Positions 10,706 through 59,515 of a stretch of 64,000 bases of DNA are shown here, in pieces. The DNA lies in contig OZ076409.1 of assembly GCA_964187785.1 (NCBI GenBank), positions 62,374,001 through 62,438,000 on the forward strand, read 5' to 3'. The position numbers and the translations under genes are program-made. Every line of letters starts with the position of its first letter. Position 1 is the first letter of the stretch. Below the pieces are notes generated by a model. The model had not been told where the DNA came from and did no database searches. It saw nothing but the letters and a program-made list of their open reading frames with translations. This DNA is from Amphiscolops sp. MND2022 (taxonomy: Eukaryota).

Positions 10706-10837
10706 ATGACGTCTTTCTTCCGCGGCTTACAATTTGTCCTTGAGTTCGATCCAGGAGACTCATATCAAGTCAAGTCTTCCACAAAGAAACTAATCAAAGA
10801 TCATGGAGGATGCGTATCATACTCTGTCACTAAACAC
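10706..10837 (+). CDS. PARP4: PARP4 exon 1, BRCT N-half (MTSFFRGLQFVLEFD...LIKDHGGCVSYSVTKH)
   Basis: ATG at 10706, BRCT F-x-G and GG motifs, donor gtaagt at 10838, phase 0. Confidence 0.85.
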
Positions 10838-10913
10838 GTAAGTCATTTGGTTTTCTTTTTCAAATGATTTTGAAAACGAGCTTAAACCGGTGGTTTTTTT
10901 TACAATGTTACAG

Positions 10914-11142
10914 GTTTTCGCTTTGTTATCGTCGGAGAAAGTGCTTTCAACTAACACTAGTTCCTCGTTCATCTCTAAATTACACAGCGCAGAACGACTG
11001 AATTGCCCAATCCTCTCTTTTGAATTCATCATAGCTTGTAAGAATGCTGAGCGTCTTGTGGACCCTCGTCCTTTCATTATTGCCACATCCAGTTCTAAAC
11101 TGTCTTTAACTGGGCAGAAATTCCAATCCGGGGTTATAAAAA
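10914..11142 (+). CDS. PARP4: PARP4 exon 2, BRCT C-half (..SAERLNCPILSFEFIIACKNAERLVDPRPF..)
   Basis: ttacag acceptor in frame with exon 1; resembles the BRCT C-terminal helix; donor gttggt, phase 1. Confidence 0.8.
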
Positions 11143-11222
11143 GTTGGTTTTTTCCCTTCATAATTAAATAATGTGGAATACATTTTCCGAGTCGATACGT
11201 TCATGTGTAAAGCATGTTTTAG

Positions 11223-26626: not shown

Positions 26627-26904
26627 GTTATCAAAGATATGGTCTCTTTGGGAGAAAAAACCAGCTGGAGTCCTAAGCCTGCCGTGAGATCAATGTACGA
26701 GGCTCTAAATTCTCTAATAGTGCCAGTGGATGTCGGAAGCGTTGATCTAGGGGTTCTGGACGCGAAAGGACTAGACGGTGAAATAACTGGCGTGTTTCAA
26801 GTTGCTAGACCCAGTGAATTGTCGGAGTTCAGAGCACACATCGGACATGTTGAAAGGCTACTGCATGGAACTAATACTTCTAGTGTCATTGGAATTTTGT
26901 CAAG
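26627..26904 (+). CDS. PARP4: PARP4 exon 8, ART domain N-part with catalytic His (LLHGT..GILSR)
   Basis: ctgtag acceptor, VIKDMV start, HG motif, donor gtgaga phase 2. Confidence 0.93.
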
Positions 26905-27039
26905 GTGAGACTTTGTATAATGTTATTCTAAATTCAATTGAGAAAACAAAATGCCTTAACCTTCGACTTTTCGATGATACTCACATAAAATGATCATTCA
27001 TATAATTTCATTAGCAATTGCTACTTTGTTGTGTTTCAG

Positions 27040-27491
27040 GGGTCTACTGTTACCGGACGTTGTGACCAATGAGTTCGGAATAAAGCTCACTGACTATGGC
27101 AAGTTAGGCGCTGGTATTTATTTCGGCACCAAAACCCAAACTAGCTTGAAGTACACCTCCAGCTCAAACTGCGGTTTTCGATACCTGCTCGTCTGTGACG
27201 TAGCGTGTGGACGAAAGTTGACTGTCACTGAAGAAAAACCGGACTTGATTAAAGCTCCCGATGGTTATGATAGTGTTCTGTTTACTGGAGGGAACAAAGA
27301 TGGTTCTAACACTCATGACGAGGAAATGGTTGTCTATGACCCGAGTCAAGTCAGCATCAAGTATCTAGTCGAATTGAAACTTAAAGCTGATTCTGTTAAA
27401 CCTTCAACTACGAAAATGCAAAACTTTCTGACTGAGGATAACGATGGAACAGAAAATGAAGACAAATGCGAATCTCAAGCCGAGGATTTAA
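27040..27491 (+). CDS. PARP4: PARP4 exon 9, ART catalytic core (GLLLP..GAGIYF..SLKY..CDVACG..GYDSV..DEEMVVY)
   Basis: PARP catalytic motifs with Tyr and Glu of the H-Y-E triad; donor gtaagt. Confidence 0.96.
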
Positions 27492-27743: not shown

Positions 27744-27917
27744 AATTGGACCAGCTGTCGTCTCTGACGCCGCCCGTAAGCGAAGCAGGTCTTGTGCCTC
27801 AGAGCGGATCCCGGGACTCTATCCCACTACAGGCAGTTCATGTCCGCGCAAAGATGGTTGACCTGGCAGCAAATGTGGTAGTGATGCAGATATACAAGAA
27901 TAACAATTCATCAACAG
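27744..27917 (+). CDS. PARP4: PARP4 exon 10, VIT N-part (IPLQAVHVRAKMVDLAANVVVMQIYKN)
   Basis: VIT domain start; phases 1/1 fit both neighbours. Confidence 0.92.
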
Positions 27918-28203
27918 GTTGCTGATAAAATGGAAACTTTATCTCTGGAAATTTGGCCTGAAAAAACGTAGCTCGTTCCACGTGATACATTTCTGATAAG
28001 AACAGTAGCTTCCCACTAGTGAAAACTTCATTTGTGCTCTGAAATAACTTTTCAACTTGAGTTGTCATTATTCAATTATCAAAGCTCCTAATCGGTTTGA
28101 TTATTATTTGCAGGAAATCTCATCAGTGAACTGTATTGGTCAGAAATAAAAAGTTATGTATAAAATGCTTGCTCATTCGAAATCTATCTTACTTTTTGAA
28201 CAG

Positions 28204-28499
28204 GACGTCAAGGCGGAAACATCGAGGCGAAATACGTTTTCCCATTGGACGAGTTTTGCACAGTTGTCGGATTCGAAGCCTACATAAACGGCAAGCACAT
28301 TGTTGGAACAGTAAAGGAAAAAATGGCTGCTCGAAAGGAGTACAAGAAGGCAATCGAAGAAGGGCACGGTGCCTATCTGATGGAAGAGGAAAAGGAAACA
28401 CCCAATGTGTTCTCAGTAGCGGTTGGCAATCTACCTCCTCAAGCGATTGTGTTGGTGAAAATAACCTACGTAACCGAACTTCAGGTACAGGGTTCGAAG
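28204..28499 (+). CDS. PARP4: PARP4 exon 11, VIT (IEAKYVFPLD..GFEAYINGKHIVG..VGNLPP)
   Basis: Strong VIT signature; donor gtcagt chosen by alignment to PARP4. Confidence 0.95.
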
Positions 28500-28920
28500 G
28501 TCAGTTGAAGGGTGGATTGCGAAATTGTTTCCAGTTTTAAAAATGCCGTTTCCTATGTCTTTGCAAATTTAATGATTCTCAATTTTTGTTTTATGGGTTC
28601 CAGCTTTGTTACCAGCGAGTCCATATAAAGTGAAAATAGTTCCATGTTTTGTGGGCTACCATTTGCCTTCCTGTATACAGACTTGTAGGGAGCCGTAAAT
28701 CATGAGTGGCTATCATGGCTATTGCCATCCCTTTTGGCATATTTGATATTTTAGCCTTTTGTTCTGGGTATTTTGTATAGTTTTAATTACAATTACCAAT
28801 TGGGTTGAGATTAAAATGTATTTTTGATTTTCTCTATACAAGACAATGGAAGAATCGACTTAATAATATTCTGCTTTAGTCATACTTGGAAAAATTGAAT
28901 CAATTGGACTTTTTGCTTAG

Positions 28921-29133
28921 GTCAAGTTTTCGTTACCTTCTGCTGTTGCACCTTGGAATGCGAAGTCTTTTGAAGACACGAAGTTGCAAACAGAGTTGGA
29001 AACCATTCTTGTGAACCCTGGGGGAACAGATGGTGAATTGGGGAAAGAAAAGTTCACGTTCGAGCTTACAGCAGACATGGGATCAGCTATTAAGCAACTC
29101 AGCTCACGAACTCATCCTCAACTAAAAATTAAG
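28921..29133 (+). CDS. PARP4: PARP4 exon 12 (VKFSLPSAVAPW..SSRTHPQLKIK)
   Basis: cttag acceptor, VAPW motif, donor gtttgt. Confidence 0.9.
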
Positions 29134-29357
29134 GTTTGTCATTGTTTCATTTTATTTTTACTGGGAGTTATTTCGGAACATGTTATGGTGTTTTTTGTTG
29201 GGTATAGTAGCTTGAATTAGAAATCAAACCAAAGAGCTAGTTCAAGATTTTAAAAGGAAAATAGAAATTTTTTTGCGCTTCTCGTCTAATGCAAAATTTT
29301 GTTTTTTCTATTTCTGCGTGGCGATTAGAGCTTTTAGTCATATTTTTTTTTCTTCAG

Positions 29358-30269
29358 CGCACAGAAACGCAAGCAGTATGTGCGCTCCCTAATGGAGCCT
29401 CAGAAAACGATCAAGGTCTTGGGAATGACGGCTTCGAACTGCTCATTGAGTTAGAAGAAGCGAACAAGCCTAGAATGTGGGTTGAACGCTTGCCTGATAA
29501 CCCGGACGACGAAGCTGTTATGCTCTCTTTCTATCCTCAATTTGAAATGAGCCAATCAGAATCCTCTGTTCACGTAACCAGTCAGATCATACTTCTCATC
29601 GACCTCTCAAACTCTATGAAACACGACAAAGGCTTTTTTACAGCAATTCAATTAGCATGTCTTACAATTATGAATTTGGAGGAACACCAACTTTTCAATG
29701 TGATACTCTTTGGCACTAATTATCGCGAAATTTTTGATGCTTCTATCAAAGCCAACGAAAATTCGAGGAAAAAAGCGATCGATTTAATGACTAAAGTTGC
29801 CACACACTTTGAAGCTCTAGGTGGAACCGAATTGGGAAAGCCCATTGCAATGTTAGCAACATTGTTTCAAACAAAAGACGATCTGAACCCGATGTTGCGA
29901 TCGAAAAGCGGAAGTAGCATGAAAACTACTTTGATGTTGTTCAGTGACGGACATTTACCACAAAGCGTTCAAAGCTCCATACTGAAAGTTCTCAGCAAAT
30001 CAGAAGACAATAATCAGTTCCGACTGTTCACAAACGGAGTTTCAAGCTCCTGTGACAAGCACACTATGAGGCTAATTGCTAACAGAGGTTGTGGTTTCTT
30101 TGAGTTTTTCGACCCATCCCACAAATCTTCGTGGGCGGAAAAAGTCAAGCGCCAGCTCAAAAAGTGCTTCCAACTTGCGTTGAGCAAAGTTGCAGTTCAG
30201 TGGGTGCGGCATGATGAAGATGATGACCGCCCAACTTTCGATGTCCTTGATGGATCTGGAATGATTCAG
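29358..30269 (+). CDS. PARP4: PARP4 exon 13, vWA domain
   Basis: PRMWVE, MIDAS DLSNS, FNVILFG, GGTEL, FSDG, RLFT motifs. Confidence 0.95.
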
Positions 30270-30547
30270 GTCTGTAATTGGGAATTGAGTTTTATGGAAA
30301 CTCCCAAATTTGGTCTCACGAAATTTTAATAGCATTCACACTCAACGTTTTGTTAGGCATTACAGTTACAAAGTACGACAAATTTTGTAGATGAACGGCG
30401 TTGTTTCGGGTGCATTGGAAAAATAGGCACTAAACTTGATACTGTAGTCTACAGTCTGTAGATATTTGTGTACGATCATTCAGCTAGCGAATATTATGCA
30501 TGCGAAATTATGAACTTTTGTTGGATGAATTTGTCTGTTCATTTTAG

Positions 30548-30698
30548 GCACCTGCAAACTTGTCAGTGTTGTTTGATGGCGAACGAGTTGTTGTGTACGG
30601 GCTGGTGAGACATTGCAGACAAGCCATTCTCAAGGCACAGTTGAATGGCCAAGAAGTTTCAACTGTAGTCTCCTGTCCCGATCTTCAAGTGACTGATG
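30548..30698 (+). CDS. PARP4: PARP4 exon 14 (APANLSVLFDGERVVVYG..)
   Basis: Q|AP junction typical of VIT-vWA proteins; donor gtaaga phase 1. Confidence 0.92.
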
Positions 30699-30884
30699 GT
30701 AAGATTTATGATTTTGTTTGGGAAGCACTAAGTTTCATCAGTTTTTAGTGGGCCAAGTGTTACCCCGCTCAAACCACTTGTGAAATGTTCAACGTAGCTG
30801 TCTTTAATTTGTAAGGCAAGAGATTTCTCGCTGTTATTCAAGTTTCGGCCCTCACGATGCTAAGGTGTAAACCATTTCCAGATC

Positions 30885-32660
30885 AATTTCATTATTATGA
30901 AAAAAACATTTTCATATAAATGCAAATCGAAACATTTTCATATGAGTGCATTCCAATTTCATTGTTGCGCGAAACATTTTCATTTGGACGAAATTCATTT
31001 TCAGTGTTCTGAATTCGTTTTCATTTGCTAAGTAGTATAAAACATTCAGCGCAGATAATTTGTATTATATCATGGAAAGAAAAGAATGAACATGTATACA
31101 TTAAAAGTTACAATTATAACTTCAAACCATTAATCTATTCTGTGCGGTTTTCTCACAAGATTCCAGGATAATATCGTTCAACATGCGCAGCATATGATGC
31201 AAAATGAAACGGCAGACTTTGTTGAATAGATTCTTTCGCAACTGTTTCTATTTTTGCATACGATATTCACCGATTGTCATTATGGCGTTGGTAAGATTGA
31301 ATTGAAATATGCTGGACATCTGATCACGTAATATCATTTCCACTGAAGCCTTGAATCTACTCCAAAAGAGCTCGATGAGAGTAATGAGATACAAGTAAGG
31401 TGCGAGGCGTGTGGTTTAGACCAAGAATGGTTTCTACATTCGAGTGAGCTGGGGCATTATCATTGATGATTGTTGGCTCCTCGATTCCCTCGTCTGTGCA
31501 TGTTTATCAACTCCCTTATCCATGCTCCCTCATTCATGCAACTTTCAGAATCGAACGAACCTTTTTAGCAATGCAAATTGTGTCCTTTCGAAGCAGTTTG
31601 TATCACGGTCGCTCTACATCCGATCTTCGATCTGCCTTCCTTTCGACAGTATAAGTTGAAGTTTGTTTCATTTACCGACACCAGTTTCCTTTCAATTGCC
31701 CGATCTCTCAGTATTTTCTTGTATCGCACTGCTTATTGTTGTTTCCATTCATTGTTCCTGGATGGGGTCGCACATTCTAGACAGAAATAAGTTTTCTCGC
31801 CAATTTCTGACATTATTTACATAGATATTCAGGAAATATACTTGCATGATTCTCTCGCAATTGCTTTAGTGTCAGTTGTTGGTCGTTTTTGAGCCATTCA
31901 ACCAAATCCAGAACAATTCGTTCTTTTTTTGACAACAATTGCACCACAATCAAGTGGTTCCCCCATTTCTTATCCAAGTGATAGCATTGCCTCTTTAATT
32001 CTTCTACGCTTTTGCAGTCATTTTTGTCGTTAAAAGCCTTGATGGTGGCGTCTTTATTGGCCTGAGATTACTGGGGATATTTGTCTCGTTTAATTGATGC
32101 CCTCTCGTAAATTCCTCTTAGCATTTTAAAAGATAGAAAATACTAGACACAATGAAATTGAACGAATAATGGTAGCAATTGTTCCGATTTTGCCAGAACT
32201 GCTATTTTCTAATTTCAAAATTGCAATTGTTGACAGTTTTTTAAAGTTTCATAATTGAACATTTTGGTAATTTTAATCAATTTCATTTTTTGTAAGCTTC
32301 AGTGAGATTATTTGGAATTTTGAATGTTCAAGTTTGCAATTTGAAGTAATTTTACAATTTTATTTTTGTGTCAATTTATCGACAATTTCTGATTCACTGG
32401 GTGAGAATTGTATGCTGAATGTGTAATTTGAAACTGTAGTTGAAAATGTAATTCGGTTGAACAAAAACGTTTTGCATGGAAATGAAATTGTTCATTCAGA
32501 TGAAACGGATGTTCATCGATATGAATATCTTTTTCATGAGTTCGATAAAAATTCTTACATGAATGATATTGGATTTCAACCATATGAAATTATTTTCAAA
32601 TAAAATGAAAATGATTGCTCGATTTAATGAAATAGAATTAGGAATTGAATAGAAAGATGT
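30885..32660 (-). mobile_element. Decayed Tc1/IS630-like DNA transposon with long imperfect TIRs
   Basis: Minus-strand fragments NETNFNLYCRKEGRSKIG, SKGHNLHC, DNAPAHS, LAPY at ~31150-32130; inverted catttt/aaaatg-rich ends. Bounds approximate. Confidence 0.75.
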
Positions 32661-33043
32661 TTATAGACACAAAAAACTTAGATATTCTGAACGTCTCAGT
32701 CAATATGGACTGTCTCTTAGCCTTTTTTCCTATATGGTTACAAAAAGTAGCCCTCATTGAATTAAAAAGACTCGCTAATCGGTATTTTTAAGGTGGAGGG
32801 ACTGAAGAGCCGAGTAGGCTCATCCCCTGTCAAAATTAAAGTTTATATTGAAACAAATGCCATTTTCTTGTTTTTACAACATTCATTTAAATAAACGTTG
32901 CTTTCCTGGTCAATGAATAGCCAGGGTTTTCTCAGTGGATCAACAAGGCTGTTTTTCTGAAGTAAACGTTGAAACCGCCGTTGTATGATTTGGTTATAAT
33001 TAATGCCTGATCGAAAAGTCTTGATGAATGCTTGTTTTGTTAG

Positions 33044-33234
33044 GCAAAATGGTGCACCAACTAGCTGCGAGGGCTATCATCCGGGACTGGGAGACAAATG
33101 CAATCCTGCACACTGACAAGTCCACTAACGAAGTCGTCAAAAAGCAGCTCAAACATACCATCATCCAACTCAGCAAACGTCATCAAGTGATCACGCCTTT
33201 TACCAGTTTTTTGGCTGTTGAAAAGCGAGAAAAG
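33044..33234 (+). CDS. PARP4: PARP4 exon 15, ITIH-like (MVHQLAARAIIRDWE..VITPFTSFLAVEKREK)
   Basis: Conserved PARP4/VWA5 motif; phases 1/0. Confidence 0.94.
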
Positions 33235-33475
33235 GTTGGTAGAAAAAGTCTCCTAGGGCCATCATATAGGAAAATTAATTGTGTAATTGCAGGAACTGCC
33301 AATAGTATTAGGAAGTTACCGAAAGTAATGACATAATAGTTTCTCACGGTTACTTTAATTTCGGGATTTATCGGTAGATTGGCATCATCATTCAATTAGG
33401 TGTAAAATATGCTGTTATAGAACAACGCCGTTTTTATTCATTATATTTCCTCCTCTTTCACTGATGAACCTTTAG

Positions 33476-33580
33476 AATGAAAAAACCAGCATGGATATGA
33501 AGTTCATTCAAGAAGTGGTTGCTAAAGAGGGAGTGGATTCTTTGGAGTATATTGGCTGGGAGAATGAAGTGATAATCAAG
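33476..33580 (+). CDS. PARP4: PARP4 exon 16 (..EVVAKEGVDSLEYIGWE..)
   Basis: Resembles PARP4 ELIAKEDVDFLPYMSW; tttag acceptor, gttagc donor, phase 0. Confidence 0.88.
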
Positions 33581-36957: not shown

Positions 36958-36999
36958 CTCCTCCTTCTTCTTCTTCTTCTTCTTCTTCTTCTCCTCCTC
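36958..36999. repeat. (CTT)n/(CCT)n microsatellite
   Basis: Directly visible. Confidence 0.9.
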
Positions 37000-41100: not shown

Positions 41101-41172
41101 CATCAGCACGGGTTCGAACCCACGACCTCGTGTCTGCCACGCAGACGCACTACCAACTGCGCCTTGGTGACT
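41101..41172 (-). repeat. tRNA-derived SINE-like head
   Basis: Reverse strand has A box aggcgcagttgg and B box ggttcgaaccc; cloverleaf imperfect. Similar remnants near 11920, 20470, 34100, 37410. Confidence 0.6.
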
Positions 41173-41278
41173 AGAATTTACTAACTAAATGAAGTGACAA
41201 GTAACTAAAATAGTCAAGTAACAAATAGTCAAGTGCGTTGAAGGAGATCGTGGAGATTTGGCAGAATTTGACAAAACG

Positions 41279-41825
41279 AGCCGAGAACGGCCAAAGTCGG
41301 CGCCATATCTAAGGTGCAAAATTGAAAAGGGGGGACCCTTCGGGCTTTGTGAAACTCCAGCTGGCTGCAAAAAATGAAAAAAATTGAAGAGGGGACCCTT
41401 TGGGGACATGAAAAAATTTCTCAAAAAATTTTTTTAAATGAGATTTTTGAACAGTGTCACAGTGCCGAAAAATGTAAAAGGGGGGACCCTTTGCAATTTT
41501 TCGACATCCATTGTGTTGCAACATATCGAAACAAATGAAGGGGTGACCCTTTGGGGCAATCCAAGAAGTTTCAAAAAGTCTCATAGTGCCGAAAAAAAAG
41601 TGGGGCTATGTGGGGATTCTTAGTGTGTTTTCGAGGTTCTGGACGTCTGTTTTGTTTTTTCTTTTCGTTTTGGACGCGCTTCTGAGGCTGGAGTTGTTGA
41701 GGTTTGAAGTTGTTGAGGTTTGACGTTGTTGAACAAATAAACAAAAAAGTGGACCTTACGCGTCTAGAAAAACTACCCACTGTAAGAGTCGGGCACATTT
41801 TCTACTAAAATGCGCCGACTAAAAA
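41279..41825 (-). mobile_element. Helentron-type non-autonomous element (HINE/DINE-1-like), family A
   Basis: Subterminal IRs agtcggcgc / gcgccgact, terminal hairpin gccgagaacggc, partial IR agtcgggc, A/T-run ends; empty-site homologue near 12590-12660. Confidence 0.78.
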
Positions 41826-42128
41826 CGCAACATAGATTATGATTTTCCTCCCCCATTATATGTGGGCGGAAAATAATATATTTAGGATAAATCGATGGAA
41901 AAAGCGCTGTATACTTTTTCAAAGTTTTTATTTGTTTTGACTTGTTTAAATTGGGGTTCGAACTGATTCGTTTTCATCTTTCAAATTGTTTTTTTTTCAG
42001 TTTGAACTTTATTACGTTATAATAATTTTGACAATATCCGATACACGTTTCCAGCTGACTGAAATCATTTTTTATTTTGACTTGCAAATTTCGACGCTTA
42101 TGAATTCCCCAAACTATCTTGACTGCAG

Positions 42129-42344
42129 ATTCTACTTCAGTGTCTGTTTAGATTGAAGAATGCCAAATTGAGCGATGGTGAGAAGGCAGAAGATGCTTAT
42201 AAAGACAAATTGGATAAGTATTTAGTGCCAGAGATAGAACGGAATGTGGAGCTGAAAGTGATTCAACTGACTGGCAAACAGACTCACTTTGTGTTTAAAC
42301 GTTATCAAAGTGTGGCTGAAGTCAAGGACACCATCTACGAAGAA
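42129..42344 (+). CDS. Exon: linker plus ubiquitin-like domain N-half (VELKVIQLTGKQ..VAEVKDTIYEE)
   Basis: LTGK and VK motifs of the ubiquitin fold; phase-0 acceptor at 42129 (alternative 42141); donor gttagt. Confidence 0.82.
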
Positions 42345-43181
42345 GTTAGTTTGGCTCTTTTGTTACACCCCCCCCCCCCCCCTCCTCCACCATCAAAATT
42401 TTTTGGGAAAATTAGTGGAAATCTTATAACAAATAGACTTGAATACAAACAGAAAGCTTCAGTTTTAAATTTATTCTCAGGGTGATAGTTTAGGATTGAA
42501 AGTTTAGATACAAACTTTGTTCACACTTTTTCCCTATGTAGTTACGCATTTTTGGTGAAGAAATCAACAGCTTCCTGTTTTGAGTCATCAATAAACACAC
42601 TCAATACGAGAATAATTATAGTCAAAATGCGTGAACAATGTTTTGTTCGAGCGGAAAAACTACTCCAATACAAGTTAACTTCCTGTTATGAAAGAAGGTT
42701 TACTTTTAATTAGGCTAGTCTAAAGTTTTTAAGGAAAGTTTTTCAGAAAATCGTATGTGAGAAACTGTAAAATTAGAAAGTAGCAAGCAATGTGCTTTTA
42801 ATTTTGTTTAGCAAGGTAAAATAAGGAGCATTTTTATCCTTTTGTTGGACAGGGTGTAGATGCAGTTGCTGTAGAAGTTGGGCGCCATTATGAATTCGTA
42901 GGGGTACTTTTTAGCTTTCTTTCGGTAATAGGATTTGTCAAGAATGTAAGCTTATGAACTTTACTTTTGAGTCTTTGCTTGAGTCAACCTTAGGCGGTGA
43001 TTGTTGAAAAACCAATGATTGAGTCAGTCTTGTCAATGAAAAGTCGTAATGCGAAGTAGTAGTAGTAGTGAGCCATTGATTTCTCCATTACATGATTAGT
43101 TTTTTATAAAATTTTCATTATCTCTGCGATAGCAGGAATATTATTGAAACCTCAAGATGCCAACTTTTTTATAATAAATCT

Positions 43182-43592
43182 GAGGGCATAAGTCGGCGCC
43201 CGTCTTAAGGCTGAAAAAGCAAAAATACTTCGAAGCGTCAAGGATTCTCTTTTTATTATTTCTGCGATAGCAGGAATATTATTGAAATCTCAATTTGTCT
43301 ACTTTTTTTTCAGTGTAATTCTTCGCACGATATTGAAAATATCAGATATTTTGTTCGGCAGTGACTATAAGCGTGAGAATTAATTTTCTCAAGCTGCCGA
43401 CAACAATTCAATTCTTATGCGATGGAACGAGCGAGTGATAATTATGCATTCGTACGCTGACGTCATTGAGATGAAACGAGGGAATGTTCGTAATTATGCT
43501 TTCGTACGCCGAGTTATTGAGATGAAGCGAACGAGTGTTAATTATTCTTTCACAGAGAGCTTCGCCTGCATTCAAATGCGAATGCGAAACTT
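43182..43592. repeat. Dispersed repeat, highly similar to 63490-63897
   Basis: agggcataagtcggcgcccgtcttaagg ... gcttcgcctgcattcaaatgcgaatgcgaaact in both copies. Confidence 0.85.
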
Positions 43593-44429
43593 TAAAGCAG
43601 AAATAGCAAAAAGCAAAAACTTTGAAAGATTAAAGCAGAAATAATAGTGTGCCCCGGGCCTATTTGTTATTGTGGTACCCTATTTTAAAAAGGATGTTTT
43701 TCTATAGGATCTCATGTAGGGCTTTTTGCAAAATCCTACGTCCTTTCACCACTGCTTTTAAAAAGCCCTCATTCAAATAGATCTAGCATATCTGAGAAAG
43801 AATTATGCGTCGATCTTACATTGTTCTATCGCTAGAATTTGGAGCATGTGAATGTCGGATAAAACTTACGGACCATGTCATCTATTTCCCCCCAAAACTG
43901 CGGCGGGGGGTAATAAGACAGAAGGTTCAAATACCATTATGTCGACATCATTTGCGTTGAAATTTTGGTCCAATAAAATAATTGATGTTAACATAATCCT
44001 ATCCATTACATTAACTCAGTTACAAGCTTCTCATTAGATTTTATAGCGGTCAAAATTTGCGTTGAAATAGGGGGCTTTTTAAATACATTTTTAGCTTGTT
44101 TCAAACGTAACTTTCTGCTATTTTGGACAGTAATATCAAAAATTATTGTAATTTTTTTGCCTGAAGTGTTCAAACAGTTGTAGAAACAATCCTCTAAGTA
44201 TTTACATTCATATAATATTCTCTTATTAGTGAAATATTTTTATTCAAGAACAAAATGTGTTTTCGTGTTTGGGGGATATTCACAACAAGGTATACCTGGG
44301 GGGGGGGGTAGATGACATGGATCAAACTTACGCGACCTTGTTTAATAACGTTATGAAAATGTCATTGCATTTTTTGTTAATCGGTGGTTGCACATACGAA
44401 AAGCAAAAGCCAAAGTTTCGTTTTTGCAG

Positions 44430-44592
44430 GAAGGAATTCCGCCAAATCAACAGAGGATTGTTTTCAAAGGAAGACAACTACAAGATGAACAAATCCTGAA
44501 TGACCTGGACGTGCAGAATGGCGACACTTTTCACATGGTGATGAGACTCAGAGGTGGATATATTGACCCTACAGCTATTCCAGACAAAAGTG
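44430..44592 (+). CDS. Exon: ubiquitin-like domain C-half (EGIPPNQQRIVFKGRQLQD..HMVMRLRGG-YIDP..)
   Basis: Clear ubiquitin similarity; ttgcag acceptor phase 0; frame continues past GG to donor gtaaga phase 1. Confidence 0.92.
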
Positions 44593-45018: not shown

Positions 45019-45159
45019 AATTGGGCCGTACAGTAATGGTAGACGCTGGCTCGTACACTGTGAAAGCTGGACTTGTGTCTGAGGGTGGATCAACTGTGGA
45101 TGCCATGTGCAGTGATATAGTGGAAGTCAGAAATGTCGTTGGCCGGCCCAGACATCAAG
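45019..45159 (+). CDS. Exon: actin N-terminal-like segment ([22 protein letters not shown])
   Basis: Matches actin phosphate-1 loop DxGSxxxKAG and VGRPRHQ; attcag acceptor, gtaaga donor, phase 1/1. Absent from the ORF track. Confidence 0.9.
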
Positions 45160-46450
45160 GTAAGAAGAGCACTTGAGGATGGATAGTCGTCTTTCCCTTG
45201 AGGATAGTAGTGAAGAACTACTAGGGATCGCTTTGCTCGAAGGGCAGGTAGGAGAGGTGCTTACTTGCAATCAGAAAGTCGGACGTTTCGAAAAACTTAC
45301 AAATGCCATTTTTTTGCTCATTAAAAAGCTCTCAGTTGTTTCAAAGTGTCCTGCGATCCATCAAAAGTTTTGGCTGCTTGTTTTCAAATGTTACACATTT
45401 GAAGTCTGAAATTTCTATTTTTTTTGGTTTACTAGTATTAGCATATGACTGTTAGAGGACATATGACATCTCGATTCGACCCTTTTTTTACTATTGGAAA
45501 GTTCTAATTTTCCATTATATTATTTACTCCAACCCATTCACTTCATATGGGAGAAGAAAATTCACCTATCCGCTTGCTTTTTCCTAACAATTATTGCGAA
45601 GGTCCAATTTTATCTTCGTAAAGTAGTCAAAAGACAATGTTCGTAGCGGGCGTATTTTTGAAAATTCGCGTGTCTCGCTTTTCCTTCGAGTTTTTCACTT
45701 TCAAAAAATAGCCTACTAAAATTTGGCGCTATTTGAGAACGACAATGTTGGGGAAACTCAATGACTGAAGAATCGCCATTCGTATGGAAACTACATCAAG
45801 ACAAATTCGGTTGTCGTTTTCAGATTTCGCAAAGCTTTAATGTAACTCGTGGAATAACGTCAACCAATTACCATGACCCAGTTTCTTGTCCCTGCATCTG
45901 ACAAAAGTCCTCAGGGGATGAATTACTTTTACGTCTCGGAGTTTATCCCCGTGCTTGTTGATGGATTTCTTCGATTGAAGTGAAAAATCAGCTGTTTAAT
46001 TATAGAAACTTCGCTCTCATTTTCGCTCGGAATGAACGAGTCTGTTTGCAATAGCTCCAATCATTCGGGGGGGGGGGGGGGGCTTTTTCCGTTCGATACA
46101 TGAAAAGTCTATTCGTCTTGGAAGAGTTGCTTGTGCTAAAAGGTTTTATTCACCCTGAAGTTAGTTTACTCACGAAGAACATTTTCCCCGTCTACTATGC
46201 CAATTGTTACTTTTCTTCCAGTTCTTTATTGTTTTGACCCACTTGACTAAGTAAGTTTTCTGCCTAATCGCAAACTAAATTCCCTAGTTTATCGTTACAG
46301 TTCACCTTCGAGAGGGAATAGGCTTATACAAGGAAGCTGTTGGCCCAACGTTGTAAACCATGTCTAAATTGATAACAATTTAGATGTTCCGAGTCTCGTT
46401 CAAAACTATATCATCATTACTAAGCAACCATTTTTTGACGCTCTTTTCTG

Positions 46451-47010
46451 TCGTATCATCATCGTCGTATCCATCATCAATGTAGAGGTCCACATAGCAC
46501 TGTTTGCCACCTCTCCGCCAGTCTGACAGCTTCATCTGTTACTCTCATCAGATCTCCGGTATGCAATCCACTTGCTTTGACTATGTGTGACGTCGTCTGA
46601 ACTTGTCCGCATTGACATAACTCGTCTTCGCTTACACCCCATTTTTTGAGGTTGTATTTTGATCTTCCATTGAGCGCTCTCAATCTATTGAGGCATTTCC
46701 ACGTGCTCCACTTCAGGTTTCCACCAGGTGGCAGTTCCTCACGACGGCCAGTAGGTTGGTTCTTTGAACGCTCTCTCATTTTCCAGAAACGCTGCTTGTA
46801 CTGTTCTGCTGTCATATCGGGGACGCATGTTTTGTGTAGGAACCTGTACCTCGATTTCAGCCGCCTCTCTGCTGGTTCTCGTCCGTACAGCGGGTGTCTG
46901 GAGTCAGTCTCTTGTTACTTTTCTCCTGTACTAGACAGCTCTTCCGGCGAATCATTGGCGGGGCTATTCCTGCTAGATTGTACACTGTATCTATTGGGGT
47001 GTTTTCTGTG
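46451..47010 (-). mobile_element. 3' fragment of an Ingi/Vingi-like LINE
   Basis: WKCLNRLR..GR..LKKWG..CQCGQVQTTSHIV C-terminal zinc-finger motif; gatacga-repeat tail. Confidence 0.72.
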
Positions 47011-47074
47011 AGACGTGGCCGGTACACTCAGATATGATTTCCATAACAGATTTACTGAACTGATGATATGATTA

Positions 47075-47697
47075 CCAGAAATTTCGTCGTCAGAATATTC
47101 GTCGTCGATAATTAAGATCTATAATCCGTCGCATTTTCTCTAATCTAATAAGAATCATTTCATTAATGAGTCCTGATAATTATCGAGTCTTTGTAATTAT
47201 CTCAATAAGTATCGATAATTGTGCAATTATTGCTATCATTGACTACTTTTACTTGTGGTTTTGAAAGAAAAAGTTTCGGATCATGCTTAGCAACCACCAA
47301 AAAGATACATTTTGTTTCTTAGCCCCCCAACACAAAGTTGTTTCGACACTTAAAGCAAAAATTTCCAGGATTTTTTGATAATTATCTGACAAAAAAGCAA
47401 AAATTCACCCCTGGGACAAGTTTAAATTGTATCGTAAAGCCCTGGTAAGTAGTTGAAACACCGTTAAAATACTTCAGGACTGAAAATTTCTCGTTGCTCC
47501 TGATAAGTTGATTGAATGCAATTAACTTTTTGACTCAATTCCGGTGTCAAAATGAAACTTGTTCTTAAGATCTCATTCTATTAATTAAATAATAGAATAA
47601 TTATAATGGTATCTTTCCGTGAACGCTGTTGATTCTGGATTAGCTAATACGACGAAATTTCTTACGACGAAATTTCTGACGACGAAATTTCCGCCTT
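47075..47697. mobile_element. MITE-like element
   Basis: gaaatttcgtcgtcagaa ... ttctgacgacgaaatttc inverted ends. Confidence 0.6.
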
Positions 47698-47704
47698 CCG
47701 ATGT

Positions 47705-48125
47705 TTAAGAGTCTAAAAAAATTTCGACTACTTTATGCAATCCTTTTTTTCTCCCAACCTTTCAGTGAAAATTTCTTAAAAACTGTCCATACGATTTCCA
47801 TAAAATTTTGCTGTTATTCTACACCCAAAGGTGCCCCTGTGTGCACAATGTTATCAAAATGGTATGACTGGAATGTGAGAAACATAGCCAAATTTCACCC
47901 TAAAATGGCCAAAAAACAGCTGTTTTTGGACTTTTTTCGATTTTCTCAAAAACTGTCCGCACGATTCGAACGATATTTCTATTTCAGGGTCATTCTACAC
48001 TATATTCTACACGCTTCATTCTACACTATCTTAGGGTCATATAAGCGCAATTTCATCAAAATCGTATGACTGGGATTCGAGCGAGTCAGAAGAAGAAAGT
48101 CATTATCCGACACCGGCTCTGGTTT
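47705..48125 (+). mobile_element. HINE-like family B copy
   Basis: Shares aaaactgtccatacgatt / aaaatggccaaaaaacagc units with 20986-21512. Confidence 0.68.
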
Positions 48126-48890
48126 CTATACCTCGACGAAATCATTTATGGCGTGCCTTTTAAAAGTTTCAAAGATGACATTCTCTATTATGGGGTGACT
48201 TCTTACTATTATTCTTTCGTTTCATGGCATCAGAAAGTTTTCCATGTCAACTTAACGATTCCACAACGGAAGAATACACGCTCGATCACGTTTAGTGCAA
48301 TGAGTGCAATATCAAATACCGATACCCTGAGTTGTTTTGTGGCCTACACTTTTTTTAGTTTCCGTGAACCTTTTGTTTTAAAATTTTGATGTTTGATTTT
48401 CTTTTACTAGTTCTATTCCGTAGTTTGAGAATGACTTTTTTGCGTTCAATTGCCTCTTCGAGCTTTCTTCTTATTCTCTTAGGTATTTGAATTTCTCAGT
48501 CAAAAGGAACGAAACTCAAAGACGCAACTTCATGCAAAAAAAAATTGATGACTTCATATTTCATTCTTGAACTACTGAGAAGAACTAATGAAAAAGTAAA
48601 TCAAGTTTTTTCTGACTCGAACTTTTGTATCACTTCATTGTGAAAATGGTGGAACCGTTTTCTGATTATGTTGGATCTTGACGTTGGATGTTTAAGTTGG
48701 ATCTTCACTGCGCCTCTTGACATGCAATCACTTTTTTGACGATAATTTGTCGGTCGCAGATAGATTTTTTTGTTTCTAGTTTATGTGATCATTCATGTGA
48801 TTGGGAATCAGTTTTTTAAATTTCTACCTCTCTTCTTGCTATGGAATTTTTTGAACGCCACTTCTCGAAGTCACTTTTATTTTCTTGCAG

Positions 48891-49025
48891 GCGTGATGGT
48901 TGGCATGGGACAGAAAGATAGCTATGTTGGAGCGGAAATCGACCCTGCATTTCGTTTGACAAAGCTTGCAAAAGTTGAAACAAAACTCCGGAGCGAAGCA
49001 ACAGACTCAGCTGATTCAAACTCAA
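48891..49025 (+). CDS. Exon: actin D-loop ([14 protein letters not shown]) then non-actin sequence
   Basis: Exact actin D-loop sequence directly after a ttgcag acceptor; donor gttagt; phase 1/1. Confidence 0.9.
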
Positions 49026-52721: not shown

Positions 52722-52898
52722 AGCTAATGTTATCTGATGCAGCTTCTTCGCCATCCCGTGTACAAGCGTTTCCCCACCCCGGAGCTGTCATGGCACCCCC
52801 TCCTTTGCTTGGAGCTTGTATGACACTCCCTCCACCACCTGCACCTGTCATGGCACCTCCTCCACCACCTGCAATTGTCATGGCCCGTCGTGCACCAG
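52722..52898 (+). CDS. Putative polyproline exon, copy A (duplicated; may be alternative or non-functional)
   Basis: ttttgaag acceptor, APVMAPPPPP repeats, weak donor gttaca at the duplication junction; phase 1/1. Confidence 0.55.
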
Positions 52899-53165
52899 GT
52901 TACATAGCAACAATGAAGCATAGAAAATACTACTACAATAGACTTGAAATAGACCGACCAGAGCAAAATGAAATGCTGGGGCGTTTTTTTTTCTTGACTC
53001 ATTCCTACATTCTTGAATTAAATAGACGTGTACATTGCCTTTTAAAACAGAGTCGTCTGTTCAATCAGTAGTAATTTTGATCAGGAAATAGTATTTTTCT
53101 CTTCAGACATGATTTTGTTCATGTCTTCCTCTTTCTGTGCCTTTAACATGTTTTCCTTTTTGAAG

Positions 53166-53570
53166 AGCCCATGTCATCGCGTAGAGCTTTCTCGCCACCT
53201 CGTCTACGAGCTTCTTGCCACCCCGGAACTGGCATGGAACCTCCACCACCTGCACCGGTGATGGCACCTCCTCCCCCACCTGCACCTGTCATGGCCCCTC
53301 CTCCGCCACCTGCTGCTGGGAGGGTACCCCCTAGAACTGACATGGCACCCCCTCCACTGCTTGGAGCTTGTATGCCACCCCCTCCACCACCTGGAACTGG
53401 CATGGCGCCCCCTTCACCACCTGCAGCTAGCATGATGTATTCTAGTTTTTCTGTACACTCGAAGCAAGTTGAAGCAGCGTCGCAACCACCACGGCTATTG
53501 GCAAGCGCCGAAAGCTACGATGAAATTGCTTGTCTTGATTCACTCTTGCAGTCAGCCACAGTTGAAAACG
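53166..53570 (+). CDS. Polyproline exon, copy B (MAPPPPPAP repeats)
   Basis: ttttgaag acceptor, open frame, donor gttagc; phase 1/1. Confidence 0.8.
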
Positions 53571-55492
53571 GTTAGCTAAAATCCAGAATTTAACTTGGCG
53601 GCATCACTCAAGTTCAAAATAGAAAACATCAATAGATGGTGACCTTTTTAAAGATATTCCTTCGACGTGGAGTTTTTTGTTGATCAGTTTCGAAATAAGT
53701 AAACTTTATGCCAATTCTAACCATCGTTCAAACGATGGTGAGAAGTCAGAGGCGCCTTAGTTGACCACTTGACAGAGCTGTGAATTTACATACGAGCCTT
53801 GAATGTCTCGAACAACGTACTAAAAGAAAATGTTCGAGTGTTGCCGAGGTTCCGAGTATTGAAACACTGAATTTCTGTTGGACAAAGTTCTATTTCTCGG
53901 AGATGACCATGGGGATGTAACTTGTTAGATTCGGTAGATCTCTTTCGTTAATTTATCGACAATTTGTCAAACAAGTGTCGAATGAACCAACTAGGAATTT
54001 TTGAAAAAGCTAACTACCAATTTTACAGAAATTTTGCATTAATTTATCACCTGCAGCAAAATTCAGCTGCCAAAAAACCACACGAACTTGAAAAGTTCCA
54101 AGTGAGAAGTTTTCAAATTAGAAAGAAGCCTTTAGAAGTAATGAAAGCGTTTTCATCCTTTATCCATAATAAAAGTTAAACTCTTATTGAAAAATAATCT
54201 AGTGGAAGAAAACTTGAAAGCATCGGAAACTCTTTAATTGAACACACAAAGTGGAGAAAAGTTCAGAGAATTGTAGAAGTATTGAGAATGTTCTCGACAT
54301 GTTCAACGAGTACGATATCGCAGCTGTCCGTGTAAGATCCCACCTAAAGGAGTGGGAACAAAAAATATCGCCTTGTACTGTGAGCCAAAGAATCGGAATA
54401 ATTGGGTAATCCCCCCTGACTGTTGCCGCTAATGGTTACTGAAACAATCCAACCTGTCACTGTCTAGTGTTGGTACCCGGCGGAGGAGTCACCAATTGCT
54501 TTCCGAAGAGTACCGAAGTGCAGTATAATCTTGTTTCAGGAAGTTTGGTACTATAACCCTGAATCGGAGCCATTGATCGAAACTGAATTTTTTCATTCGC
54601 ATCCAATCACATGGTTGATTTACCTTCCAATCTTTCCGCGACAGAAATCTGATAGATTGAATGTTGTTTTCTCCTCACAGGTGACGGCATTTGAACATAA
54701 TGATAAATAGTACTCCTTCAATGATCGGAGCTGCCCTTTTTTGCATACTGTGCCTCGAGTATATTTCAAATCAATTGAGGGGCAAAATGATGCTTCTTTG
54801 CTGCGGAAAACGAGTCTTCAAGTGCTAAAATGTCATTAACGAAAGCCTGGACTATCATCATAGCCTTAAAATGCCCTGATTTTTCCTTTATCTTTTTTGC
54901 CAATTTCGAACTTTGTCCCAATTTGATCATAATATTTTTTGGTTAAGTCTATGTTTGTTCCAGCAATCACGCGGAGTTTTTTCAACTTTTTTTCGTTCCG
55001 GTGTTTCTCCCGGTTTTTTTGTAAAAATTTCTAGTTCATAGCCATGGCTAAACAGCAGTCAGAGATTCTCTTCTTGGAACAATGAGTAACTTCTCGATGT
55101 TCATGCTGCTGCATTATATGGGCTGAAATGAGAGCAAGAAACTGTGTTACCGGAGTGATCAGACTTGTAGCAATAAACGGCACTTACTTTGAATAGTATC
55201 GAGCGGTCGAAATGTTTCGTTCACTCTACTTGCGCTGTTGGACTTCTCAAAGAGTAATGATTTCTCCACGGAACGTTGAAGTAACTGCTTTGGGTTTGAT
55301 TTATTTCTGCACCAACTGGAAAGACTGAAGTTTGAATCTCGAAAGCAGAAAAGATATGCTTCATAAAAAAGAAGCGTTCGAATCAACTCATGATTTCAGA
55401 AGCTGACTTCTGCATCAAAAAAACTAACGCTTCGTGGGATTTCCAAATTTTTGCAGCTCTCATAATTTCACAGGGAAAACCAAACGCTTCTC

Positions 55493-55739
55493 ACCCTAAG
55501 CTTTTTGAAAAAGTTTCTTAGTTACTAGAGGTGCACTGGACAGGAAAATTTTCGTCCGGCTGGACAGGACTGATTGAAGTCGAACTTCCGTATCTTTACA
55601 AATTGAGATGACAATGTCGTTTTTGGACAATGTTAAAGATACGGAAGTTCGACTTCAATCAGTCCTGTCCGGCCGGACGAAAATTTTCCTGCCCAGTGCA
55701 CCTCTTGTAACTAAGAAGCTTTTTCAAAAAGCTTAGGGT
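55493..55739. repeat. Near-perfect foldback (MITE-like), ~105-bp arms
   Basis: accctaagc..cttccgtatcttt / aaagatacggaag..gcttagggt. Confidence 0.88.
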
Positions 55740-56472
55740 AGACATTATTTTTTAAAGAATTTTCAGTAATCTGTGGTCTAATTTCGCCTTATTGAGGGAG
55801 AAATTTTGGGAACAAGTTTCTACTTATGAATCCTAAAGTAATTCTCTTTAAATATTGAACTACATCTAATCACAATGATTGTTCGTTCTGGCTTTCTTTG
55901 TTTCCATTACAATGCGAAAATATCAGAGACAATTTACTTACTGCTATGGTAATTGGAAATGGTTTTTTCATTCTACTCTATCTACATATTTAGAAAAGTC
56001 ATCGCTTGAAACTTCTCACTAATTTGTCTCAATTTCCAAAGTTTGCCGTTTTACCTGTAGTAGTTTTCAGAAAGAGCTGATGTCTTGGCGCAGTTTTGCG
56101 GTTTAAGTAAGTAAGTAGCAAACTTTACAATTTCAAAATGATGTGGATTTGATAAATCTCTCGTTGTGTTGGATGTCGGAAGACAATCGGTGAAAACCTG
56201 TTGACGGCGCAATATTCACATCTAGTATACTAAATTGGTCTTAAGTGTGCAAAAATTGCCTTGAGTTTTAATCATGAACCCAAAACATTGTACTAACCGG
56301 CAAGTTTCCATTGCTGACGTCTTAAAATCTCAAAAGAGAGTCGTCAAACTTCGTATTTGGATTGATTCAATGGAGATGAACTTATTCTGTGGACTCTCGG
56401 TTCAAAATTCCTAGATTCGATAAAACGGCATTTCGGATCATTTCTTGGCGTGCTTCACATTGTGTTTTGAAG

Positions 56473-58110
56473 GAGTCGAATTGAACAGTTTACCGGGCAA
56501 CCTCACAGAAAGTGAAGAGGATCTCCCAATAGTTTCTCCCAAAAAACTGCCCGTTTCAATTGCTTGTTCTGACGATGATATATTTAACGAACCTCTAACG
56601 AACCAAATTTTTGGTAAAAAACAACCACGTGGAACCGCCAGTGGCTCAGTTGATGGGCAACCGCTTAGCAACATTCAATTTGGATCGTCATCGGCTCAAC
56701 CAACCAGTGGGGGTTTGTTTGGATCAGCCTCCGCACAACCGGTTACTGCGCAACTGGCTAGAAGCAATCTTTTTGGGTCTTCATCGACCCAACCAGCCAT
56801 TGGGGGATTGTTTGGATCAGCTGCGCAACCGGCTAAAAGCAATCTTTTTGGGTCTTCATCGACCCAACCAGCCAGTGGGGGTTTGTTTGGATCAGCCTCC
56901 GCGCAACCGGTTACTGCGCAACTGGCTAGAAGCAATCTTTTTGGATCTTCATCGACCCAACCAGCCATTGGGGGATTGTTTGGATCAGCTGCGCAACCGG
57001 TTAGCAGTAGTCTCTTCGGATCGTCGTCAGGCCAACCGGCCAGTGGGGGTTTGTTTGAATCAGCCTCCGCGCAACCGGCTAGAAGCAATCTTTTTGGGTC
57101 TTCATCGACCCAACCAGCCAGTGGGGGTTTATTTGGATCAGCTGCCGCGTAACCGGCTAGCAAAAGTCTCTTTGGATCGCCATCGGCCCAACCGGCCAGT
57201 GGGGGTTTATTTGGATCAGCTGCTCCGCAGCCGGCTAGCAAAAGTCTCATCGGATCGTCATCGGCCCAACCGGCCAGTGGGGGTTTATTTGGATCAGCTG
57301 CTGCGCAGCCGGCTAGCAAAAGTCTCTTCGGATCGTCATCGGCTCAACCGGGCAGTGAGGGTTTATTTGGATCAGCTGCTGCGCAACCGGCCAGCAGTAG
57401 TCTCTTCGGATCGTCACCGGCTCAATCGGGCAGTGGGGGTTTATTTGGATCAGCTGCTGCGCAACCGGCTAGCAGTAGTCTTTTTGGATCTTCATTGGCT
57501 CAACCGGCCAGTCGAGGTATGTTTGGATCAGCTGCTGTGCAACCGGCTAGTAAAAGTATCTTCGAATCGTCATCGGCTCAACCGGCCAGTGGCGGTTTGT
57601 TTGGGTCAACTGTTGTGAAACTGGCTAGCGAAAGTCGCTTTGGAACATCAGCTATGCCGCCGGCCAGTAACAGTACATTTGCGGCCGAATCTCATGATAG
57701 TACTTTTGGATCATTTTCGGCTTCATCAACTGGTTCTGGTTTCGCATTTGGATTTGGTTCCTGTGGTGAAGAAAGATTAGCTTCGAATAAAATTTCCAAA
57801 TCTGGTCGAATGAGAAAATCTAAAATGAGTTCTTCGGAATGTTTTCGTGAGCTTGCGATTGGCTCAACTGACGACGTCAATCCCTGGTCAGGATCAACTT
57901 TATTTGGTGGCCCTTTGCGGAGTGGCTCTGTTTTACATAAAATGTCTTTGGAAAGTGCAGAACGTTCACGTGTAAAAAGTATGATGTCTCCTGATTCGTG
58001 TGAACTTGGACAAAAAAAGCCGGAAATGAAAATAGTTTCTGCAGAAAACTGGACTGCCGTATCTGACAATGCTGCTACGCTGAACCGTGAAATGGTTGAC
58101 GAAACCGAAC
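56473..58110 (+). CDS. FG-repeat exon (GGLFGS/SLFGS, nucleoporin-like) with in-frame TAA at 57150-57152
   Basis: ORFs 56445-57152 and 57495-58115 share one frame; 1638 nt, phase 1/1; ttttgaag acceptor, gttagt donor. Confidence 0.78.
56680..57610 (+). repeat. Coding minisatellite, alternating ~36-nt units (QPASGGLFGSAAA / QPASKSLFGSSS)
   Basis: Tandem caaccggc..gggggtttatttggatcagc units directly visible. Confidence 0.95.
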
Positions 58111-58281
58111 GTTAGTTGATAGAAACCCTCTGTTCAGTCAATTTCTAATTGGTGTCGAAGCTTTACAAAAATACGTTTAAATTTGCCTTGTTTTTGCTGA
58201 CCTTGATGAAAAAATTCAATTCACGCATTTTTTTACTGTTGACCAAATACTGAAACAGTTGATTTCTTCTCCAGGAATGCC

Positions 58282-58574
58282 AATTTTTCTAATTAGTAGT
58301 GTTCACTGAACACTACTAATTAGAAAAATTTTCACATATTTTCCTTGCATTTATGTATCATGTGCAACTCACTGGTTGTGCACTAGTCACAACCATCTAT
58401 GACCCTCCTTTTGGCAAATTATTCAAAAGTAGTCAAAGGCAACTCATTCGAAGTTCCAGTAAATTAATGGGTGATGAGCTTGGTTAGTCCAAAAAGAGGG
58501 TCATAGATGGTTGTGACTAGTGGACAACCAGTGAGTTGCACATGATACATGAATGCAAGGAAGATATGTGAAAA
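58282..58574. repeat. Perfect 24-bp-arm palindrome abutting an ~85-bp-arm inverted repeat
   Basis: aatttttctaattagtagtgttca-c-tgaacactactaattagaaaaatt; ttttcacata..gaccctc / gagggtc..tatgtgaaaa. Confidence 0.88.
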
Positions 58575-59243
58575 TGAGGCGAAGTGTAAATGATGGTACA
58601 AGATTCAAGCAGGTTGTTTGAATTGAATGTATACAATAAGTCGTAGCTAGACGTCCCCCAAAATGATACCTGGTCAAAATCTCTGTTGTATTACTCTGTG
58701 TTCATCCTTACGGCACGCTTCTCGCCCCTCCAGGATGACCTTCATCAAGACCAGCCGCTGGAACACTACTAGCACGTCTCTAACGTGTCTAATCACGTTT
58801 TTATCGTTTGACTTTAACTCGGGAGGTTTTGAGCTGACATACCTCCTACTTCCATTGGTTCCATCACCGAAGTTTCCTTTAATGCAATTAATTGAAAACT
58901 TCTGAACAGTTTGAGGATTAGGTTTGCAATGGAATTAACGGATTCCTGACAAGTAGAACGGAATGAATCCAAAAAGTTCCATTTCTATATGATTTTACTC
59001 GAGATCCTACTACATTATCATGAGATACATCATGCATGGAAAAGTGTATATACGTCAATTCTCTGGTTAACAAAAATTCAAAGGTTGCTTCAATTCGAAG
59101 TCTTAAAGTACCGGGGGTTTGAAAAATATGCAAAAATTGATTAACGGGGTTTCTATTTGTGGCAGTAAATCAGCATTCGTGTTTTTATTTTCATACCAGT
59201 CATACCAGACTTCTAAGATGAAACTGTTTCTTTTCTATTACAG

Positions 59244-59515
59244 AAGCTGTCTCAGAACAATTGGATGCCGAATTGACTTCATTAACTCCAACAGAAGCTT
59301 ATGGGGGATTTCATCTTGTCGAGGGAGACTTTTCCAAGCATTTGGAAGCAATGTCTTCAGAACTGGATAGACAATCAAAGCAGCTATCGAGCATTTCGAG
59401 GCACACTTCAAGTATTGGAGGAGGCATTGAGGAGAGTCTGAACAATATTTATGACCCGTCAATAGAAGATACTGTTGATGAAGCAATGGACGAGAGCGAT
59501 AGTGAATGCGAAGAG
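59244..59515 (+). CDS. Acidic exon (..DPSIEDTVDEAMDESDSECEE)
   Basis: ttacag acceptor phase 1 fits the preceding exon; donor gttggt. Confidence 0.72.

Follow-up and report, generated by a model that had tools for sequence, protein, structure and literature searches.

The function of vaults and of PARP4 is a long-standing open question. Since 2014 the fast-evolving PARP4 linker has been regarded as a possible host-pathogen interface, but no mechanism has been given. In vertebrates, the region of human exon 30 is disordered, length-variable and positively selected (PMC4038475); it has been proposed as a host-pathogen interface or cleavage site (PMC4038475; PMC10450202), the suggested cleavage being viral (PMC10450202). 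The homologous VIT-vWA protein ITIH4 traps a protease after cleavage of its variable bait region, in a vWA-dependent manner (PMC7793589). PARP4-like proteins carrying 14-3-3, actin and ubiquitin-related domains, the same fusions as those considered below, were already seen in 2014 and read as signalling or cytoskeletal links (PMC4245714). The available text of that paper mentions no FG tracts, heptads or P-stalk ends and proposes no bait role, and the actin, ubiquitin and 14-3-3 fusions receive no mention in the available text of PMC2964712 and PMC10539598. Our literature search, covering main texts mostly outside subscription journals, brought up neither FG repeats in PARP4 nor an interpretation of PARP4 fusions as decoys.

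The window analysed here is a stretch of 64,000 nucleotides from Amphiscolops sp. MND2022 (contig OZ076409.1, positions 62,374,001 to 62,438,000), and positions without a contig prefix refer to it. The host gene, which the first-pass annotation had named a vault PARP, proved to be one, with the following features:

10706..11144 (approximate limits), plus strand: BRCT exons of PARP4 (tblastn E=2e-9)
26627..27491, plus strand: ADP-ribosyltransferase (ART) domain, two exons (Pfam PARP E=2.1e-11)
27744..33580, plus strand: ITIH-like region with VIT, vWA and hybrid exons (Pfam VIT E=3.3e-27, VWA_3 E=2.2e-9)
56473..58110, plus strand: FG-repeat exon, predicted symmetric phase 1/1 cassette (splice sites, phase, Pfam PF13634)
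59244..59515, plus strand: next predicted exon, acidic, phase 1/0 (splice phase)
G000:C1:62442789-62453932, beyond the window, where the gene continues: predicted MVP-binding domain (HMM)

The order BRCT, internal ART, VIT plus vWA is that of PARP4 clade 5. His, Tyr and Glu are present at the ADP-ribosyltransferase motif positions, which we take to be the catalytic triad. The ITIH-like exons (27744-33580) form a phase-compatible chain without stops that, together with the ART exons, spans 26627-33580. The best relatives of the vWA exon are named PARP4, and the best named relatives are from invertebrate animals. The last three predicted exons, scored together with an HMM built from the MVP-interaction domains of 34 relatives, reached 17.1 bits, compared with at most 7.9 in 500 shuffles; taken singly, these exons match weakly (best E=0.007). 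An MVP gene is present in the genome, with PF11978 over its cut-off on contig C11. A second PARP4 copy or haplotig was considered and rejected, the vWA search having given one match among 3 candidates. The host gene is a full-architecture PARP4, the splicing of its C-terminal part being predicted, and the FG exon sits in the linker between the ITIH-like region and the predicted MVP-binding domain.

Some introns of this gene contain mobile-element remains, whose types were assigned by eye. A broken LTR-type element lies at ~12500-18200, between the BRCT and the catalytic exons, and broken LINE-like and LTR-like pieces lie in the last intron (G000:C1:62445500-62452800). The same last intron holds near-identical short stretches at G000:C1:62445355 and 62447887 (L002/L003) with weak matches to the MVP-domain HMM (E 0.5-0.9), which are probably an intronic repeat and not exons.

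The limits proposed earlier for the FG exon are exact: an AG precedes 56473 and a GT follows 58110, the length is 1638 nt in phase 1/1, and the donor at 53570 and the acceptor at 59244 are phase-compatible with it. With 545-546 codons, it is the largest predicted exon of the gene. Its 545 codons specify 27 FG dipeptides, whereas shuffling the residues 2000 times gave a mean of 4.0 and no more than 11, and its FG density is 4.95 per 100 residues compared with a mean of 0.95 in the linkers of relatives. Pfam Nucleoporin_FG matches both of its open halves (E=1.8e-22 and 2.4e-24), while DddA-like and PCF11 matches remained below cut-off and were discarded as compositional. Charged residues make up 4.5% of the 335-codon repeat zone. 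The Nup98-type likeness and the uncharged spacers noted earlier are therefore borne out, in the form of dense GLFG/SLFG motifs separated by charge-poor spacers. The exon is not part of a nucleoporin as judged by a GLEBS, autoproteolytic or anchor domain, its host being PARP4. More than twenty GGLFG/SLFG/NLFG motifs had been announced; the FG richness stands, but the named motifs number 18 (9 GGLFG, 5 SLFG and 4 NLFG), or 19 with one EGLFG.

The repetitive part of the exon is a single array:

56697..57650, plus strand: minisatellite, 23 units of 36, 39 or 54 bp, GGLFG (A) alternating with S/NLFG (B) (sequence)

The repeat zone covers about 56697-57650, leaving ~75 codons at the start of the exon and ~150 at its end outside the repeat. 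Tandem periods of 78 bp (9.4 copies, 84% matches) and 168 bp (4.4 copies, 81%) were detected. All 22 unit spacings are multiples of 3, with no frameshift; the FG is intact in 20 of the 23 units and lost in three. The identity of the 33-nt cores is 88% between A units, 80% between B units and 60% between A and B, and some blocks are near-identical (152/168, up to 75/78). Moderate average likeness, with near-identity confined to some blocks, indicates an older array on which recent duplications are superimposed. The earlier description of units very similar at the DNA level thus holds for some blocks and not for the cores in general; likewise, the proposed recent minisatellite expansion is right as to a local tandem array, whereas only the duplications on top of it are recent.

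Between-unit variants, counted against the class consensus, comprise 16 silent and 21 replacement changes over 16.3 and 49.7 sites, respectively, which gives in the FG frame a pN/pS of 0.43 (p=0.011). An alternative count with slightly different columns gave 17 silent and 23 replacement changes (p=0.016). The other two plus frames have pN/pS values of 0.92 and 1.01, so that the FG frame, and not another, is the constrained one, as the first-pass annotation had supposed. The +1 frame, open over 339 codons, was rejected on its pN/pS of 0.92 and a stop just past the acceptor; a minus frame with a pN/pS of 0.43 has its third positions in common with the FG frame and is without gene context. Silent changes are in excess among the unit differences when these are read in the FG frame; the growing tract was therefore under selection as protein, and a loss of the FG exon, if any, is recent.

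We searched the whole genome with Nucleoporin_FG and obtained 20 matches among 33 candidates, in six loci: the PARP4 exon, a Nup98-96-like ORF (C13), a Nup214-like ORF (C2), two further nucleoporin-like genes on C12 and C8, so named from their sequence, and a stand-alone repeat ORF on C7. Nup62 was not identified among these loci, and none of the six holds another copy of the PARP4 FG array. The exon might have been captured from a nucleoporin gene and then homogenised. The best DNA match to Nup98 is a stretch of 38 nt, 82% identical (pairwise E=6e-4), in which both sequences encode a QPA..GGLFG unit, and no longer collinear match was found to Nup98, Nup214 or the two other nucleoporin-like loci. 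No tandem period was detected in the FG DNA of Nup98, the exon flanks have no similarity to Nup98 or Nup214 better than E>=0.2, and the tandem FG tracts of relatives differ in period (9, 10, 13-14 and 24 residues). Such a capture is very improbable. The comparison supports a local tandem expansion as the origin of the exon, in agreement with the preference for a minisatellite over a captured nucleoporin exon expressed earlier, and the exon may still include a short captured nucleoporin seed.

The same search brought up other features of this genome. The C7 locus (G000:C7:52340577-52342790, L019) is an open frame of 738 codons that consists of 39-bp GGGLFGSTTNQSA-type units and encodes 49 FG. 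It starts near an ATG and shows no obvious splice link; a zinc-finger/vWA gene follows ~4.6 kb downstream in the same orientation. The locus is a second, apparently independent GLFG minisatellite. The Nup98-96-like gene (G000:C13:14923151-14928562, L022; 1804 codons) and the Nup214-like gene (G000:C2:54241122-54246398, L025; 1759 codons) each appear to be a single uninterrupted frame, which is unusual in an intron-rich genome; they are perhaps retrocopies that replaced their parents.

The FG frame is interrupted at one codon, a feature absent from the first-pass annotation, so that the exon as assembled has no open frame from acceptor to donor:

57150..57152, plus strand: in-frame TAA where sister units read CAA/CAG (Gln) (sequence)

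This stop leaves 225 codons and 12 FG on its upstream side and 15 FG downstream. Among 24 checked PARP4 exons, a set that leaves out the region 33580-42152 and the junction before the MVP-domain exons, 23 contain no stop codon and the FG exon is the sole exception. Inclusion of the exon would end the protein before the vault-binding domain, and nonsense-mediated decay is expected when a stop-bearing exon is included in an mRNA. A genetic code reading TAA/TAG as Gln was rejected, as two long ORFs contain 191 CAA/CAG beside no TAA or TAG. In-frame GT..AG pairs exist around the stop, and the T at 57150 itself creates a weak GT at 57149; removal of the stop by splicing is unlikely, however, because the internal acceptors are poor, the best of them being G-rich with a T fraction of 0.5 (0.29-0.71 for ten predicted acceptors). 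In view of the stop codon, the exon in this assembly is likely skipped, or this copy broken. In a second assembly, the downstream half of the exon is encoded on a contig of 118,548 bases as a 198-aa protein starting from the ATG at 57519; a protein for the upstream half was not found in the protein collection, and the stop may or may not be present in that assembly. We consider a nonsense allele of one haplotype nearly an even chance, a fixed stop in a skipped exon possible though somewhat doubtful, an assembly error rather unlikely and any other cause highly improbable.

The exon could then be dead, either a once-coding cassette that is always skipped or part of a loss-of-function PARP4 allele, with no present role. 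Besides the TAA and the three units that have lost their FG, this is favoured by the phase 1/1 of the exon, which permits clean skipping from 53570 to 59244 with the frame kept, and by the annotated PARP4 isoforms of four relatives (tunicate, Hydra, snail and sponge), which differ by in-frame linker deletions of 20-77 residues; those of Nematostella differ by truncation instead. Yet there is a single stop, no frameshift among the 22 spacings, intact splice sites and an excess of silent changes, so that any loss must be very recent; the stop may belong to one haplotype or be an assembly error, and human exon 30 is present in all isoforms examined in PMC4038475. We regard a dead exon as rather improbable.

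Upstream of the FG exon, the linker contains other modules:

42152..44592, plus strand: ubiquitin-like domain, two exons (42152-42344, 44430-44592; second exon Pfam ubiquitin E=6.3e-15, first exon read by eye)
45019..49025, plus strand: actin N-terminal fragment with D-loop, two phase 1/1 exons (45019-45159, 48891-49025; Pfam Actin E=0.083)
52722..53570, plus strand: two polyproline phase 1/1 exons, apparent duplicates (52722-52898, 53166-53570) (sequence)

Five consecutive linker exons are in phase 1/1. Across 12 successive residues, the second actin exon matches actin 44-55 of PDB chains exactly (E=0.12), the actin E-values being weak because the fragment is short. In this gene and in the PARP4 of mussel, oyster, Hydra and Nematostella, the actin D-loop is nearly unchanged and both of its flanks have diverged. 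A small predicted exon at G000:C1:62440692-62440768 (L002) encodes an acidic Ser-Asp-Asp-Asp-Met with a weak likeness to P-stalk ends.

We then compared the PARP4 tails of relatives. Out of 153 fetched proteins, 53 were kept, in which the ITIHL end motif lay past residue 900 and was followed by >250 residues; those dropped were short, were other VIT-vWA proteins or had the ITIHL motif unmatched. The 53 tails contain 270 FG for 88.8 expected, a threefold excess (maximum 133 in 300 local shuffles), and 171 for 67.4 expected without the seven richest. In 31 proteins with a bounded linker, the linkers hold 138 FG versus 45, and the cores 69 versus 82. Other aromatic-glycine pairs are also raised in the linkers (WG 8 versus 2.8, YG 29 versus 17), and part of the FG signal may therefore be generic aromatic-glycine; acidic contexts such as the P-stalk motif hold 48 of the 270 FG. 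Dense tails are a minority, with at least 8 FG in 12/53 and at least 20 in 1/53, the richest being that of Lytechinus pictus (XP_054753684, 30 FG). Two proteins outside the 53, the chiton XP_064611003 and one further, exceed the Pfam FG cut-off.

Tandem FG tracts occur in the PARP4 of urchin, chiton and fish, and since their periods differ between species, they point to separate expansions. No orthologous exon was found. FG-rich linkers recur across the family, which does not agree with the exon as a one-off recent novelty.

Fragments of host proteins other than FG repeats were found after the vWA domain in 17 of 42 relatives scanned with Pfam, a hand-picked, not random, set of automatic gene models whose proteins share kinship, so that the counts are not independent. 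The 17 comprise actin in four (mussel, oyster, Hydra and Nematostella), ubiquitin-like domains in six (including molluscs and diplonemids), 14-3-3 in five (of which four are named dictyostelids), Ras in one (Pelomyxa) and EF-hand plus synaptobrevin in one (Bodo). Hsp70, in the oyster protein, and acidic ribosomal protein matches fall within proteins already counted. Matches to zf-C4 (P0040) and reverse transcriptase (P0046) look like gene-model artefacts and were rejected. Motif scans gave Pol II heptads in 5/83 proteins, histone H4 tail-like motifs in 2/83, H3-like motifs in 1/83, and P-stalk ends in 10/153, fish included, one of them with Pfam Ribosomal_60s over cut-off. A single match to motif patterns occurs in the cores of the 53 proteins, which total 62,923 residues.

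The linker of this gene is thus a variable region with host-protein fragments on a VIT-vWA scaffold. Among the functions guessed for the FG tract by the first-pass annotation (karyopherin or capsid binding, phase separation, protease bait), this linker context supports bait as the best candidate. The FG exon also lies in the same position as the positively selected human exon 30. We tentatively favour, as a reading close to evenly balanced, that the exon is a locally expanded module in a bait array of host mimics, in this assembly likely skipped or part of a null allele. A broader proposal is possible but more doubtful: across eukaryotes, PARP4 would be an integrated-decoy sensor with a swappable mimic array, an ITIH-type trap, an ART and a vault anchor, and the FG exon a nuclear-pore decoy caught during gain or loss. 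The pathogen targets imitated in such an array would be FG nucleoporins, the actin D-loop, ubiquitin, 14-3-3, Hsp70, small GTPases, SNAREs, ribosomal P-stalk, Pol II tail and histone tails.

FG nucleoporins are cleaved by pathogen proteases, and toxins, effectors and viruses often target the host proteins whose fragments lie in these linkers or use them as cofactors. The entry of capsids into FG phases has been described (PMC10881386). Under the bait reading, the PARP4 linker would be an intracellular counterpart of the ITIH4 bait, imitating proteins bound or modified by pathogens. The FG tract would be engaged by a pathogen factor that acts on FG nucleoporins through binding or cleavage. Cleavage would free the catalytic half from the vault anchor; binding would place the factor beside the vWA and ADP-ribosyltransferase domains, leading to its trapping or modification. 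Linker modules would be gained and lost as symmetric phase 1/1 exons, the FG module being just lost or polymorphic. Several observations go against such a bait: the modules could serve recruitment or scaffolding, in line with the reading in PMC4245714; the FG exon is broken in this assembly; most tails are FG-poor and acidic contexts account for a share of the FG; and a bait inside a closed vault is hard to reach.

The main rival to the bait reading is a tether in the vault lumen. The FG tract would then be flexible, its weak stickers letting linkers self-associate or hold lumenal cargo, and its copy number would drift by slippage. The chemistry of the units is near that of the engineered phase-forming repeat GGLFGGNTQPAT (PMC8245513), variants with 13 residues or with SLFG also yield phases (PMC9918544), PARP4 is concentrated inside the vault cage (PMC12280208) and the FG enrichment, at low density, is family-wide. 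By comparison with PMC9918544, the tract would be compatible with karyopherin binding as well as with phase separation. However, there are 23 units here compared with 52 in the engineered constructs, lysine or arginine occurs in 8 of the 11 B units, and a tether leaves the actin, ubiquitin, 14-3-3, P-stalk and heptad fragments of PARP4 linkers unexplained. We consider the tether unlikely, but the most serious of the competing roles.

Alternatively, the tract could bind karyopherins or the FG domains of the pore and so link PARP4 or vaults to nuclear transport. Its composition and spacing are Nup98-like, the Nup98 of this genome having 32 FG in its first 480 residues, 12 GLFG and 5.7% charged residues. 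Reports of vaults at pores come from vertebrates. They are cited in PMC13100048 and PMC12547018, and the first-pass annotation had seen in them a link between vaults and nuclear pores worth testing. The link is weakened because PARP4 binds the interior of the cage (PMC12280208); moreover, most PARP4 tails have few FG, the dense tract is patchy across species, the exon is broken, and its flanks show no Nup98 or Nup214 likeness. A docking role at the nuclear pore is unlikely, and a part in nuclear transport quite improbable.

Taken alone, the FG exon is a modest finding, an extreme case of a PARP4 family trait, broken here. If the linker does imitate pathogen targets, the idea is testable module by module, and the linker would list the attackers of each lineage.

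In plant NLR integrated decoys, fragments of effector targets are fused to a defence protein and swapped between lineages. The PARP4 linker would resemble them in carrying target fragments on a putative defence protein, swapped by lineage, and differs in its scaffold and output and in having several short fragments in series within a disordered linker. Like the GLFG domain of Nup98 and the engineered GLFG52x12/x13 (PMC8245513, PMC9918544), the exon combines GLFG and SLFG motifs, a period of ~13 residues and charge-poor Gln-Pro-Ala spacers; unlike them, it has 23 units and perfect DNA periodicity, lacks a GLEBS or pore anchor and lies inside a PARP. PARP4 shares with ITIH4 a VIT-vWA scaffold and a long variable region, which makes the latter a model for bait-and-trap (PMC7793589), and it is by this analogy that we infer trapping by PARP4; ITIH4, in contrast, is a plasma protein without PARP or vault domain, and its bait is not known to copy host proteins. 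Human exon 30, in the linker between ITIHL and MVPID, is likewise the largest exon, in the same position, of low complexity and variable length (PMC4038475; PMC10450202), whereas the FG exon is a regular minisatellite with a silent excess between its units, follows ubiquitin-like and actin modules and carries a stop.
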